Assembly: GCA_029262065.1 (NCBI GenBank)
Contig: JAJDAC010000057.1
Coordinates: 2,094-66,093, forward strand
DNA length: 64,000 bases
From: Candidatus Krumholzibacteriota bacterium
GTDB lineage: Bacteria; Krumholzibacteriota; Krumholzibacteriia; JAJRXK01
Direction: 5' to 3'
Shown: positions 35,529 through 45,101 of the stretch, piece by piece
Layout: each line of letters begins with the position of its first letter
How positions within the stretch are numbered: position 1 is the stretch's first letter
Translations under genes and position numbers: made by a program
Notes under the pieces: generated by a model
What the model was told of the DNA's origin: nothing
Databases searched by the model: none
What the model saw: only the letters and a program-made list of their open reading frames with translations

Positions 35529-36197
35529 ATGTTTCGACGCATCCTTACTACGATGACAGTACTCATGGTGGCTTGCTCGATCGCTTTGCCCGTGCAAGCC
35601 GTCGTGACTTCGCTCCCGTTGCTTCAGGCCGGGGACGACGAACGAGAGGACGCTCTGGGCTGTTACGAGCCAGACTTTCTGGCGGGTACCTCTTCGACCG
35701 AAGTCAATTTGAAGGCGGGCGGCAACGCGTGGGGTTGTTCGTCGGAGTGGGCCATGAGTGTGGAGTTCGACCTGAGCGACATTCCCGTGGGGTTGGCGGT
35801 GTTCAACGCGACCTTCACCGTGCGGAAGACAGGATATGCCGACGACTCCATCGGCTTCTTTCCGCTGGGCCTGTTCGCCTATTCCGCCACCGGCGGAGTC
35901 GTCGGGGTGCCCCGGGCAAACCTGACTCTCGAGACCTTGCTGGATGCCGTATCGCCCTCGTCGCCCAATGTGGACCACTCGTTTGACGTGACCGAATTCA
36001 TACGTGATGCGGTGGACGACGGCGAGACCCGCGTGGGGCTGTTGCTGGCCAGCGTCTACAACGAAGCCGGCTACCACGACTTCATCTACCTGGGAGGCGC
36101 GGGCCACAGCTCACCGCCGCGCCTGGTCGTGGAGCACGAGGGGCCCGTTTCGACCGAGAGCAGCAGTTGGTCCGCGGTGAAGGCGCTCTTCCACTGA
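35529..36197 (+). CDS. Secreted DNRLRE/CBM96-like beta-sandwich protein ending in a SWSAVKALFH tail
   Basis: Signal peptide ending VQA; FDLSDIP...A...FDVTEFI...PRLVVE pattern; C-terminus GPVSTESSSWSAVKALFH*. Confidence 0.75.
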   Translation: MFRRILTTMTVLMVACSIALPVQAVVTSLPLLQAGDDEREDALGCYEPDFLAGTSSTEVNLKAGGNAWGCSSEWAMSVEFDLSDIPVGLAVFNATFTVRKTGYADDSIGFFPLGLFAYSATGGVVGVPRANLTLETLLDAVSPSSPNVDHSFDVTEFIRDAVDDGETRVGLLLASVYNEAGYHDFIYLGGAGHSSPPRLVVEHEGPVSTESSSWSAVKALFH

Positions 36198-36334
36198 AAC
36201 GACCGGATCGGCAGAGATTTCCCCGACCCGGCACAAATGGCACGCATCGTGATAGTCCATCTATCCGTTCGCAAGCCGCGCACCGGACCTCTTTTATCCA
36301 GTATTCGACAAGGCTCCGGAAGTGTTTGGCAGAT

Positions 36335-36827
36335 CATGGGTTAGGGGCCTCGTGGGGAAGGCTTGGGTCGGCCTCACGAGTGCCACCTCCCATGGCCGTC
36401 TACGATAGAGGACGGCAAGTGTCCCAACCGTGATGCAATTCGCGGACGGGGGGCGACAGTCGGAACCAGGGTCTCGCTGCGGCGAGGCACCCGGTTCGCT
36501 CCGGCCGAGAGGCCGGGGTCGGGGCCGAGACCCCGTCAAGTCGAGTTGACGTGGTCACCGGTTGCGTGGCAGCGAGGGTGTTTGGAAGAGAAGGCGAGAG
36601 ACTCTTTCAGACGAATACCGTCGCGAGCTGAGGGCGGCGGGTCCGAGCATGGCGGACCCGCCGTTCCACCAAAGCGCCGTCGTCCCTGCCAGAGCAGGAT
36701 CAAGTGACGTCTCGTCACCCGGTCCAACGGTGATCCGGCTCGCACGAAGTTTTCGTGGTAGGTGACACCACGGTGGTAAAGGCCCTCGACCGAGCTTCGG
36801 TCCGAGGGCCTTTACGTTTCTCCCTTT
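36335..36827 (+). ncRNA. Putative large structured RNA (unassigned family)
   Basis: At least 10 consecutive hairpins covering most of the interval, with G.U pairs and a GNRA loop favouring the + strand, ending in a terminator; no credible ORF. Confidence 0.55.
36776..36827 (+). terminator. Intrinsic terminator closing the structured element
   Basis: GTAAAGGCCCTCG (36776-36788) pairs with CGAGGGCCTTTAC (36803-36815), inner ACCGA/TCGGT stem, then GTTTCTCCCTTT. Confidence 0.8.
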
Positions 36828-36880
36828 ATTCGATCTTATCGCGAAAACGTCGTACACTCATTGCGAAGGGGGATTCGCAT

Positions 36881-37615
36881 ATGAAACGGCGGTCTGGATC
36901 TGTAGTAGGTCCCATTCTCATTGTCGTTGGTCTGCTCATGCTGCTCAGTCAGATGGGCGTTCCGGCGTTTTCGCATCTATGGCCGTTGTTCCTGCTCGCT
37001 CTGGGCGTGGGGCTGCTCATACGTTACACCCAGGATCGCGACGAATCGGGACCGCTGTTCGCGGGCGCTCTGCTGGTTCTGTTCGGACTGTTCTTCCAGC
37101 TCGATCAGTTGGTCACGCTTCACCTTGGCGACCACTGGCCCTTCTTCATCCTGGCGCCAGGGTTGGCACTGTTGGTCCTGGCTATCGTGGGATCGGGCAA
37201 ACGGGACACGCTGATTCCCGGATTCGTTCTGATTGCGGTGGCCGTGGTGTTCTACTTGTTCGAGTGGGGATTCTTCCACCGACTGTTCAAGACCGTGTTC
37301 GACCTGGTGAAGTTCCTGGTGCGTTTCCTTTTGCCCGTGGCCCTCATTGGTGGCGGCGTATGGATGGTGCTGGGACGCCGCCGCTCGTTGGGTGAACGAG
37401 GACGCGACTTCCCCGAAAAGTTCGAGCCGCCGTTTTCCCGCTCGCCGATCCCGGAAGATCGGCCTGGCGATATCGATCCGTCGCATCACATGGCTTCGAC
37501 CGACCCCATCGAGGAAGCCGAGACCGAGGACCTGCCGGCCGAAGCCATTGAGGAAGCCGAGATCGAGGACCTACCGCCCGACCCGGATGAAGCGGACGAA
37601 AAACCGCCTCGCTGA
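36881..37615 (+). CDS. LiaF/LiaI-like (DUF5668-type) membrane protein with acidic tail
   Basis: Start re-picked at ATG 36881; repeated G..LI..G.L.LL..........WP..L units; tail IEEAExEDLP x2. Confidence 0.75.
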   Translation: MKRRSGSVVGPILIVVGLLMLLSQMGVPAFSHLWPLFLLALGVGLLIRYTQDRDESGPLFAGALLVLFGLFFQLDQLVTLHLGDHWPFFILAPGLALLVLAIVGSGKRDTLIPGFVLIAVAVVFYLFEWGFFHRLFKTVFDLVKFLVRFLLPVALIGGGVWMVLGRRRSLGERGRDFPEKFEPPFSRSPIPEDRPGDIDPSHHMASTDPIEEAETEDLPAEAIEEAEIEDLPPDPDEADEKPPR

Positions 37616-37696: not shown

Positions 37697-39148
37697 GTGC
37701 ATTCCTCCGACGTGCAGGAACAGATTGCCGCCATGGGCGAGTTGCCCGTGTTGCCGCAGACCCTCCTGCGGGTGCAGAAGGTCGCCACCGACGATCGCTC
37801 GAGTGCCGACGATCTGGCCGAGGTCATTCTCAAGGACCAGGCTCTTACGCTGCGTTGCTTGAAGATGGTGAACAGTGCCTTCTACCAGCGGCCCGGTGGA
37901 GAAACCGTGCGGACCGTGCGACGGGCGGTGGTGGTGCTGGGGTTTGAGAGCGTACGCAAACTGGCACTCGCCCTGTCGGTGTTCGACATGATGAGCAAAC
38001 TGTCGCGCTCGCCCCATCTGGTGAACGTGGCCGAGCACTCGGCGGTGGTGGCGGCCTTTGCCCGGCAACTGGCCGAGCTGTGCCCTGGGGTGGCGCCCGA
38101 CGAAGCGTTCGTCGCGGCCCTGGTGCACGACATCGGCAAGGTCGTGCTCATGGAATGTTCTCCGCGCGACTACGATAAGGTGCTGGCCGACGTGGCCAAT
38201 GGTGTCGACACACTCGATGCCGAGCGTAAGCACTTCGGCATGTCGCATCCGCGGGCGGGTCGCAAACTGGCCGCGCGGTGGAAGCTTCCCAGCGAACTGC
38301 AGGCCCTCATTGGCGATCACCACGATGTCGACCCGGTTCGTCCGCCACGGCACGCCGAACCACTGGCCATCATCCTGGCCGCGGCTGATCTATTGACGCG
38401 GTTTACCGGCCGTCGTGAAAACGCGCAACGCGAGGCTGACCAGCTGCAGAAAATTGGTCGCGCACTGGGAGTGCCGGCGGCTCGCCTCGAGGAAGTGTAC
38501 GCGAACCTGGGCGACACCCTGAGTGCCCTGGCCGATGGTCTGGACCTGGAGCTGGGCGACCTGCGACGCTACGCCGCGGTGGTCAACGCCAAGGACAGCG
38601 CCAGCGTCGCTCCTCCATTGAGCGACGAAGAGATAAGCGCCCGCACCGAAGCACAGCTTCGGCTCTACCAGGGGTTGGGCCAGGGCATGGCCGAGGGCCG
38701 GGATCCGCAGAAGCTGCTGCAGTCGGTTGTGGACGGCGCGCACCGGGTACTGGGATTCGAGCGAGTGGTGCTCCTGGCTACCCGTCAGCAGCGGTTCGAG
38801 CCTTGGTTGGCCGCTGGACCGGGCGCCGCTGACCTCATGGTTTCACTGGGGCGGCCGGTTTCCCGCGAACTGGGTCCACTCGCCATGTGCGTTCTTCAAC
38901 GTCGTTCATTTCATGTTCCCATGGCGCAGAGCGATGCATACGGATCGCTCGAAGAGAACCTTCTGGTTCAACTGACGCAGACCAATGGCTACGCGGTGGC
39001 ACCGGTGGTTCGATCCAATTCCGTGGTGGGAGCCCTGTTTGCCGACATGGGTCCGCAGGGCCCCGATGTGGCGGCTGAACTCGCCAGCGAATTGAGTGGT
39101 CTGGCCGTGCAGGCCGGCCTCGTACTCTCCTCGACGGAACTTGCCTAG
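37697..39148 (+). CDS. HDOD-domain protein with C-terminal GAF-like domain
   Basis: ELPVLP, DQALTLRCLKMVNSAFY, LGFESVR, ALVHDIGK, FGMSH..AG..LA.RW.LP; GAF-like C-terminus (AVAPVV...VGALFAD). Confidence 0.88.
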   Translation: MHSSDVQEQIAAMGELPVLPQTLLRVQKVATDDRSSADDLAEVILKDQALTLRCLKMVNSAFYQRPGGETVRTVRRAVVVLGFESVRKLALALSVFDMMSKLSRSPHLVNVAEHSAVVAAFARQLAELCPGVAPDEAFVAALVHDIGKVVLMECSPRDYDKVLADVANGVDTLDAERKHFGMSHPRAGRKLAARWKLPSELQALIGDHHDVDPVRPPRHAEPLAIILAAADLLTRFTGRRENAQREADQLQKIGRALGVPAARLEEVYANLGDTLSALADGLDLELGDLRRYAAVVNAKDSASVAPPLSDEEISARTEAQLRLYQGLGQGMAEGRDPQKLLQSVVDGAHRVLGFERVVLLATRQQRFEPWLAAGPGAADLMVSLGRPVSRELGPLAMCVLQRRSFHVPMAQSDAYGSLEENLLVQLTQTNGYAVAPVVRSNSVVGALFADMGPQGPDVAAELASELSGLAVQAGLVLSSTELA

Positions 39149-43715: not shown

Positions 43716-45101
43716 TCAGGTTTCGGCCGAGTATCGGTTCAATCGGGTATACAGCGTCTTGACGCTGATTCCCAACTGCTTCGCGGCCTGCCGTTTGTTG
43801 CCGTTCGCCGTCTCGAGCGTGGCCAGGATGAGCTTCTTCTCCATCTCCGCGATCGTGGTTCCGACCGCGACCCGGATGGTGTTGCTGTCGGATGAACCAT
43901 CGGCGGTTGGGGTGGGCGAGGCCATCGAATTCATGGACGGCGTTGGCAAGGCGTTCTCGTGACCTGGAAGCGCGACCGTATCGATCTCGTCTTTGGCCAG
44001 AATGAAGCTGCGCTGCACCACGTTGATCAGCTGTCGCACGTTCCCCGGCCAATCGTAGTCTTCGAGCGTTCGCAGCGCCGGCGTCGTGAACCGCTTTTGG
44101 GATTGGCTTTCACGGTTCAGTTGGCTGAGAAAGTGCAAAGCCAGAAGCTCGACGTCGCCGTCGCGCTCGCGTAGGGGCGGCAACAAGATGGGGAACACGT
44201 TCAGGCGATAGAAAAGGTCTTCCCGCAGTTGATCCTCGGCCACTGCCTCGGCGGGTGCGCGATTGGTTGCGGATACGATCCGCGCACGGCTCTCGCGAAT
44301 CTCGTTGCCGCCCACGCGGGAAAACTCGCCGGTCTCCAGCACGCGCAGAAGTTTCGGCTGGAGTTCAATGGGCATTTCGGTGATTTCGTCGAGGAACAGG
44401 GTTCCTTCGCCTACCCTCTCGAAGACTCCTTCGCGAGAACTCGTCGCACCGGTGAACGCGCCCTTGTCGTGACCGAACAGCTCGGACTCGATGAGATTCT
44501 CAGGTACCGCGCCGCAGTTTACCGCCAGGAATGGACTCTCATTGCGGCGACTCAGCCGGTGGATCGCTTGGGCCACCACTTCTTTGCCGGTTCCCGTCTC
44601 GCCGACGATCATGACGGCGGCGGGGGTCGGCGCCACCCGCGAAATGAGTTCGTACACCGTGCGCATGCTGGGGGAACGGCCTACCAACGGACCAAAAGAT
44701 CCCAACTCGATCAGGTTGTTGCGAAGGCTGGTGATTTCCGACCGCAGGCCCGCTCGGCGCTTTGCCCCAGCGATCGCCGAACGCAAGCGATCGCCCTCCA
44801 CTGGTTTGGGAATGAAGTCGGCTGCGCCCCTTTGCATGGCGTCGACGGCGTGATCCACCGAGCGGGAGCTGGCCACCATGATGGTCTCCATCTCGGACAC
44901 CTGGTCCAGCAACGAGCGCCCGTCGCCGTCGGGCAAGTGGGTATCCGCGATGAGGAGTTCGTAGGTTTCATTCGAGAGGCGTGCACGAGCTTGCGCAAGC
45001 GTCGTGACCAGCACAACGTCGAAGCCCCCCTCTTCCACGGCGGCGCGGAGTATCGGCTGGGTTGTGGCATCGTCGTCGACGATCAGGGCTCGGTGGGCCA
45101 T
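43716..45101 (-). CDS. Sigma-54-dependent response regulator (REC-AAA+-HTH, NtrC/AtoC family)
   Basis: LIVDDD and ADTHLPD receiver; GETGTGKE, GAFTGA, LFLDEI, WPGNVRQL; Fis-type HTH GNKRQAAKQLGIS. Confidence 0.95.
   Translation of the reverse strand: MAHRALIVDDDATTQPILRAAVEEGGFDVVLVTTLAQARARLSNETYELLIADTHLPDGDGRSLLDQVSEMETIMVASSRSVDHAVDAMQRGAADFIPKPVEGDRLRSAIAGAKRRAGLRSEITSLRNNLIELGSFGPLVGRSPSMRTVYELISRVAPTPAAVMIVGETGTGKEVVAQAIHRLSRRNESPFLAVNCGAVPENLIESELFGHDKGAFTGATSSREGVFERVGEGTLFLDEITEMPIELQPKLLRVLETGEFSRVGGNEIRESRARIVSATNRAPAEAVAEDQLREDLFYRLNVFPILLPPLRERDGDVELLALHFLSQLNRESQSQKRFTTPALRTLEDYDWPGNVRQLINVVQRSFILAKDEIDTVALPGHENALPTPSMNSMASPTPTADGSSDSNTIRVAVGTTIAEMEKKLILATLETANGNKRQAAKQLGISVKTLYTRLNRYSAET

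Follow-up and report, generated by a model that had tools for sequence, protein, structure and literature searches.

What lies between the end of a 222-aa open reading frame (at 36197) and the LiaI/LiaF-like (DUF5668) gene that begins at 36881 in the window, by which we mean the whole 64,000-nt stretch of Candidatus Krumholzibacteriota DNA analysed here? A first-pass annotation, made from the letters alone, had described 36335-36827 as a densely base-paired element of about 490 nt and had left two readings for it, an independent large RNA or an attenuating leader of the DUF5668-HDOD genes downstream, with the caution that high G+C inflates chance hairpins. By comparing the locus with its counterparts in related genomes and metagenomes, we conclude that the region probably encodes an independent non-coding RNA gene, to which we give a probability of about three in four. 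We call this RNA RNA-1, and a second, shorter conserved unit that follows it RNA-2.

Folding of the intergenic gap

The + strand of 36335-36827 folds to -277.7 kcal/mol, compared with -215.7 +/- 6.9 kcal/mol in dinucleotide-preserving shuffles (z -8.95), which bears out the dense base-pairing of the gap; the - strand gives a z of -5.84 against the same kind of shuffle. The stems that had been read by eye are all found at their coordinates, and almost all of them recur in both the minimum-free-energy and the centroid folds. Exact 8-nt inverted pairs are also enriched in the element (12, compared with 3.7 +/- 2.5 expected). One such pair, CTCGCTGC/GCAGCGAG, had been put forward as a pseudoknot or switch, and the complementarity is indeed exact, yet 88% of shuffles contain at least one 8-nt pair of this kind, and the match is therefore no evidence for either.

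The extent of the element had to be redrawn. A structured element is present as described, but it is predicted to start near 36264, some 70 nt before 36335 and just after a conserved promoter, and in place of one ~490-nt element we find two units, RNA-1, which runs to a 14-bp hairpin at 36632-36666, and RNA-2 (Table 1). Folded by itself, RNA-1 has a z of -8.0 on the + strand versus -4.5 on the - strand. The terminator with which the annotation closed the element is there as a strong hairpin, but a simple terminator scan calls neither this hairpin nor the terminal hairpin of RNA-1, since their T-runs are interrupted; in relatives, T-runs do follow the counterparts of these hairpins.

Table 1. 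Coordinates of RNA-1, RNA-2 and adjoining features in the window
Feature	Position	Strand	Remarks
Sigma-54-type promoter, TGGCACGCATCGTGAT	36238-36253	+	TGGCACG-N4-GTGAT; -24 TGGCACG, -12 region GTGAT replacing TTGCW
RNA-1, conserved structured non-coding RNA (predicted)	36264-36670	+	407 nt if ending at the terminal hairpin; covariance-model matches
Tiered stem (helix A/A', P0, 20-nt loop)	36275-36330	+	Same fold in 14/14 homologues folded singly
Helix A/A', GCCGCGC with GUGU-UU-GGC	36275-36281 with 36322-36330	+	Clade-specific sequences
P0, CCGGACCU with AGG-C-UCCGG	36283-36290 with 36311-36319	+	Tier of the stem
20-nt loop, CUCUUUUAUCCAGUAUUCGACA-type	36291-36310	+	Invariant ends, pyrimidine-rich
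P1, long bulged hairpin (first stem of the first-pass annotation)	36335-36394	+	60-68-nt hairpin at the same place in 14/14
P2, short hairpin GCCGUCU...AGGACGGC	36395-36416	+	Purine-rich 3' side (GAGGAC) conserved; 14/14
Variable middle domain	36417-36617	+	Hairpins 36419-36454, 36463-36497, 36498-36519, 36529-36556 and 36574-36622 (minimum-free-energy and centroid folds)
Purine-rich 3' motif CCGUCGCGAGCUGAGGG and 14-bp terminal hairpin	36618-36666 (hairpin 36632-36645 with 36653-36666)	+	Homologous to intrinsic terminators of relatives
RNA-2, second conserved unit	36671-36830	+	~150-160 nt; shared by the window, G007, G005 and L041
RNA-2 terminator hairpin, tail ACGUUUCUCCCUUUAUU	36778-36813	+	Very strong; 3' end of RNA-2
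LiaI/LiaF-like membrane protein (DUF5668) gene	36881-37615	+	Pfam PF18917, PF22570; neighbour, not part of RNA-1
HDOD-HD-GAF gene	37697-39148	+	PF08668, PF01966, PF01590; neighbour, not part of RNA-1

Homologues of RNA-1

A blastn search of 60 relatives matched no more than a block of 45 nt from the 5' edge, and did so in two genomes from a different genus, whose loci hold the same type of GC-rich structured gap. Scanning genome contigs for an exact pattern gave one known relative again and otherwise chance matches only, and the corresponding scan of metagenome contigs added four variants (L041, L042, the L033/L039 lineage and G005-like contigs). With a covariance model built on the 5' part of RNA-1 (R1), full-length matches scoring 27-160 bits were obtained in 10/10 genomes of the window's family, and the remaining 198 of the 208 phylum genomes searched gave no credible match. 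A second model (R2), built from 14 sequences, reached E <= 2e-19 in the same 10/10 genomes; its sole match outside the family, in G109, falls within an MtnA-like coding sequence and was rejected. Phage and plasmid collections yielded no RNA-1 match.

The comparison covers 14 homologues, several of them closely related to one another. They span four genera and retain invariant blocks throughout. All 14 share the promoter, a 5' domain of constant length (~160 nt) and the terminal hairpin, and every one folds better than its shuffles, with z between -2 and -8. In relatives the RNA measures 314-494 nt. The window's own genome carries a single copy; its contig has been assembled from sequencing run SRR15505514 as well. 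Two near-identical copies occur in G009 (L069 = G009:C6 and L078 = G009:C2), where the flanking MqnE-like gene, small membrane protein and S8 peptidase are duplicated too; given 7% contamination of that bin, the copies may reflect a mixture of strains instead of a true duplication.

A conserved sigma-54-type promoter

Upstream of the conserved core, at a constant distance of ~72 nt, all 14 homologues have the motif TGGCACG-N4-NTG(A/C/T), which has the -24/-12 arrangement known from sigma-54 promoters. Its -24 half is a perfect fit. In the -12 GC the G never varies, and 10/14 promoters have A or T in place of the C, giving TGA or TGT for the canonical TGC. The form TGGCACG-N4-[GT]TGA occurs only 4 times on both strands of the 5.77-Mb genome and yet stands at the same place in 14 loci, which argues for conservation and not chance. 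From the usual spacing of such promoters, transcription most likely starts near 36264 (36262-36267). In L042 and L033 the neighbouring upstream gene runs divergently, which means that the RNA there is not transcribed from it.

The machinery for such a promoter is encoded in the family: rpoN (sigma-54, PF04552) is present in 10/10 genomes, each of which also has 13-27 genes for enhancer-binding activators (PF00158). With its constant promoter spacing and with sigma-54 and activators at hand, RNA-1 has the attributes of a sigma-54-dependent regulatory RNA, the dependence itself being predicted. No activator gene is conserved beside the RNA or consistently near it among the family loci, and no shared upstream activator site was recognised in the flanks of the homologues. 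A sigma-54 activator gene (AAA+ domain, PF00158) does lie 8 kb downstream of the RNA in the window (44187-44687, - strand); relatives have none at a comparable distance, and nothing therefore ties it to the RNA.

Two other promoter assignments were considered and set aside. GGAAC-N16-CGAC was examined as an ECF-type promoter, but the sigma-54 element upstream of it is invariant and GGAACC is the 5' strand of helix P0. TCGACA as part of a sigma-70 promoter lacks a conserved -10, and a promoter scan finds none. Elsewhere in the genome, a sigma-54 promoter beside an activator gene on contig C14 serves a pilin gene and not an RNA. This near-canonical promoter (TGGCACGCCGTGTGCT, G000:C14:120943-121450) is directly downstream of the activator gene and is followed by a type IV pilin-like gene (MLKKNQGFTLIELMIVV...), a PilR/PilA-type arrangement.

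Architecture of RNA-1

When three segments of the 5' part were folded separately for each of the 14 homologues, the same architecture emerged every time, a three-tier stem followed by P1 and the short G-rich P2, within a 5' domain of 157-165 nt. The loop ends, CUCUUYC...UCGACA, and the 3' strand AAGGCUCCGGAAGUG are almost invariant. Helix A, by comparison, is made of unrelated sequences in different clades (GUAUC/GAUAC, AUGCC/GGCAU, GCC/GGC), and one pair of A' (columns 16-64) switches between C-G and U-A. The outer helix of P1 covaries as well, from CAUGGG/CCCAUG in the window to CAAAGG/CCUUUG, CGAAGG/CCUUCG, CAAGGU/AUCUUG and CAGG/CCUG in relatives; P2 keeps its GUC...GAC closing pairs in 14/14 while its outer pairs covary (GCC/GGC, CAC/GUG, CGA/UUG). 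The 5' strand of P0 shifts register against an invariant 3' strand. When the window's RNA is folded at full length, the lowest-energy structure has long-range pairings where P0 would be, and the 5' fold is therefore not unique.

The middle domain varies in length among the homologues. Possible counterparts of its hairpins in relatives, of the CCGG-GAGA-CCGG type and with a GUCGAG loop, are tentative only, and because the window's genus has no close relative, the middle-domain stems are predicted purely from thermodynamics. At the position of the 3' motif and terminal hairpin, relatives have CGUCGAG...GAGAGAGGG, then a hairpin, then a U-run. The terminal hairpin of the window is followed by the tail CACCAAAG and has no U-run, which makes read-through into RNA-2 plausible; the transcript in the window may continue through RNA-2 to the terminator at 36778-36813, for a total of ~550 nt.

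Compensatory changes and coding potential

The first-pass annotation had named covariation as the deciding test, and in two clades the compensatory changes exceed both shuffled and slid controls. Over the full length, 23/92 pairs are compensatory in the g3 clade (shuffles 9.6 +/- 2.1, equalled in 0/500; slid controls 5-15) and 12/125 in the g4 clade (shuffles 6.8 +/- 1.7, 2/500; slid controls 0-3), in small alignments of 4-14 sequences, several of them close kin, with structures taken from these same sequences. The tiered stem has a family-wide covariation score of 0.151, compared with 0.078 in shuffles (0/500). In the alignment of this stem only 72% of cells pair because the registers of the clades are shifted by one column, and these one-column shifts remained after realignment with a third model (R3). 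Judged on these alignments, RNA-1 would qualify as a structured non-coding RNA whose base pairs have been kept through compensatory changes at a level above controls.

Indels whose length is not a multiple of 3 outnumber those that are by 43 to 5 in the g3 alignment and by 35 to 4 in the g4 alignment. There is no 3-base periodicity among the variable columns, and the clades have no open reading frame within RNA-1 in common. A small conserved open reading frame (MLGS...) in genus g3 was discarded, as it contains a 1-nt indel and other clades do not have it. The pattern of substitutions and indels indicates that RNA-1 is not coding.

Comparison with known RNA families

In line with the earlier failure to see hallmarks of RNase P RNA, tmRNA, SRP RNA or common riboswitches, a search of the whole window against Rfam 15 gave zero matches at gathering thresholds and four at E up to 10, all of chance level. 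Neither the models for RNase P RNA, tmRNA and SRP RNA (RF00010, RF00023, RF00169) nor any Rfam riboswitch matched the window, and ARAGORN found nothing in it. The genome's own RNase P RNA, tmRNA and SRP RNA are located on contigs C17, C17 and C7, respectively. The 6S RNA model (RF00013) has no match in the window or in the whole genome, a model that is insensitive here (5/14 control genomes). 6S RNA is a ~180-nt rod with a central bubble; RNA-1, at 407 nt, multi-branched and unmatched by RF00013, was rejected as a 6S RNA. RNA-1 is in no RNA catalogue, and no Rfam family matches it.

RNA-2 and the neighbouring genes

At least six different genes follow RNA-1 among the lineages. In the window, G007, G005 and L041, the RNA is followed by the second element of ~150 nt and then the LiaF-like gene. 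An AbrB/Doc toxin-antitoxin pair takes this place in L042, where genes for an AbrB/MazE-like antitoxin and a Fic/Doc-like toxin (~640-1247, RNA strand) stand where RNA-2 and the LiaF-like gene would be, an arrangement that looks like an insertion or replacement. The L033/L039 lineage has an S8 peptidase directly after the RNA. In genus g3, G006, G009 and G004 have a conserved small membrane protein of ~80 aa (MTRLLWVALAVFLLNLPFGYWRA..., e.g. L053 1840-2086, RNA strand) and then an S8 peptidase, and G008 and G002 have a FadL-like gene; a membrane sensor follows in G003. Past the RNA terminator in G008 and G002 (L050 ~1950-2000 and L051 ~1945-1985, RNA strand), a conserved block common to both, GACGTTCGTTCGTAAAAGA(N2)TTTTGAC, precedes the gene for the FadL-like outer-membrane protein. 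The upstream genes vary as well, being MqnE-like in g3 and G003 and others elsewhere.

RNA-2 has the conserved pattern UCAAGU..., CACGGUSGYAAAGGCCCUC...GAGGGCCUUU. It was found only where a LiaF-like gene comes next; L042, L033 and genera g2 and g3 lack it. RNA-2 could function as a separate sRNA, extend RNA-1 at its 3' end or insulate the LiaF-like gene that follows. Between the RNA-2 terminator and that gene is a -10-like TACACT (36853-36858), which is shared with genus g4 and suggests that the LiaF-like gene has its own promoter.

DISCUSSION

The two readings that the first-pass annotation had left side by side can now be told apart for RNA-1. It has its own promoter and terminal hairpin, both conserved together with the 5' domain, occurs in 10/10 genomes of the family, shows compensatory changes and keeps changing neighbours; we therefore take it to be, probably, an independent RNA gene and not a leader of the DUF5668-HDOD genes. 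As an attenuating leader, RNA-1 would have to serve at least six different downstream genes, and for RNA-2, which stands only before the LiaF-like gene, the leader is a weak option. It is quite unlikely that 36264-36830 as a whole is a cis-acting leader or attenuator that gates transcription from the sigma-54 promoter into the two genes, LiaF-like and HDOD, downstream. The restriction of RNA-2 to loci with a LiaF-like gene, the missing U-run after the first hairpin of the window and the membrane or exported protein encoded next in several lineages would all suit such a leader, but the genes after RNA-1 in other lineages are unrelated and include a toxin-antitoxin pair, RNA-1 of relatives closes with a canonical terminator and U-run, the terminator of RNA-2 is very strong with no evident alternative anti-terminator, and the shared TACACT separates that terminator from the gene. 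The remaining worry, that the hairpins arose by chance from high G+C in an unremarkable spacer and have no RNA function, gains something from the 62% G+C of the genome and from a - strand that also beats its shuffles; set against invariant blocks across four genera, compensatory changes in excess of controls and the conservation of both promoter and terminator, we regard it as very improbable.

What an independent RNA-1 would do is a question on which we can be far less firm. The sigma-54-type promoter points to a conditional regulatory role, in which an enhancer-binding activator encoded elsewhere would switch on the promoter in response to a signal and the RNA would act in trans without Hfq; neither Hfq nor ProQ is detectable in the window's genome. 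Our preferred reading, held tentatively, is base-pairing between the CUCUUYC...UCGACA loop, which is exposed and invariant, and sites in target mRNAs that are rich in purines and Shine-Dalgarno-like. The 3' end of 16S rRNA was not found in the window's assembly. The loop might in turn be masked from within the RNA by the conserved G-rich tract of P2: the CU-rich loop and this tract are 97.6% pairable, compared with 66-85% in slid registers, a figure from which chance pairing of pyrimidines with purines is not separable.

Nearly as likely as pairing of the loop with mRNAs, though still doubtful, is that the 5' domain of constant size serves as a platform for a specific protein, which would make RNA-1 a decoy or sponge or a subunit of a ribonucleoprotein. 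GlmY, 6S, CsrB and CrcZ are each recognised by their own protein. The 157-165-nt domain has long invariant stretches even inside helices, AAGGCUCCGGAAGUG among them, and constant length combined with invariant helix stretches is rare in simple base-pairing sRNAs; the 5' strand of P0, moreover, changes register as its 3' strand stays invariant. Against a protein-binding RNA, the known sponge signatures are absent (GGA is not enriched, there is no AAnAAnAA and no Hfq), no co-occurring protein gene adjoins the RNA, and CsrA occurs together with FliW, a partner that as a rule takes the place of RNA sponges. Two specific sponges were rejected outright. For a CsrB/RsmZ-type sponge of CsrA, the GGA counts equal the shuffled expectation with only 0-4 unpaired, and CsrA is accompanied by FliW; for a CrcZ-type sponge of Hfq, AAnAAnAA motifs occur in 0/14 homologues and Hfq in 0/10 family genomes. 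In the window's genome, a fliW-like and a csrA-like gene are adjacent (G000:C16:22829-23564).

Compared with our preferred reading of loop and mRNA pairing, a more far-reaching proposal has only a slim chance of being right, namely that RNA-1 is a new class of large non-coding RNA whose invariant 160-nt 5' domain senses a ligand or protein at the grade of a riboswitch or ribozyme, that it is made only once a sigma-54 activator is at work, and that it is one of several large sigma-54-driven RNAs replacing Hfq-type sRNA networks in an uncultured, Hfq-less and activator-rich phylum.

Sigma-54-dependent sRNAs include Qrr1-5 (controlled by LuxO), GlmY (GlrR), NrsZ (NtrC) and Pxr (Nla19), which are 100-230 nt long, fold simply and for the most part pair through Hfq-dependent seeds. 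RNA-1 resembles them in its sigma-54-type promoter, a type that requires an enhancer-binding activator, and differs in size and complexity, its family measuring 314-494 nt with a conserved multi-helix domain of 160 nt. For sigma-54 regulons, this comparison draws on PMC3844500. Among large structured bacterial non-coding RNAs, OLE, GOLLD, ROOL, raiA and HEARO, whose functions are unknown or recently found, are all in Rfam. Like them, RNA-1 is longer than 300 nt, has multiple covarying helices, was found comparatively and suggests no obvious function; unlike them, it is unmatched even at E up to 10 and has a far narrower range, a single family. To our knowledge, only a handful of well-supported bacterial non-coding RNAs exceed 300 nt and possess a conserved multi-helix core, and the study of each has opened up new biology.

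Another close parallel is CrcZ/CrcY of Pseudomonas, a sigma-54- and CbrB-dependent sRNA of ~400 nt (PMC4063720, PMC5113210). Like CrcZ, RNA-1 would come from a gene of its own under a sigma-54-type promoter, measure close to 400 nt, stop at a terminator hairpin and, presumably, act in trans when a signal induces it. CrcZ titrates Hfq through repeated A-rich motifs, whereas RNA-1 has no such motifs and its ten genomes no Hfq; crcZ adjoins cbrB, whereas RNA-1 has no adjacent activator gene, and the two have no similarity in sequence or by Rfam.

RNA-1 brings with it a readable regulatory input, as its sigma-54 promoter would imply a dedicated signal and activator. The covariance models R1-R3 enable further members to be collected, and because the lineage has no Hfq, RNA-1 could reveal how RNA regulation is laid out in an uncultured phylum.
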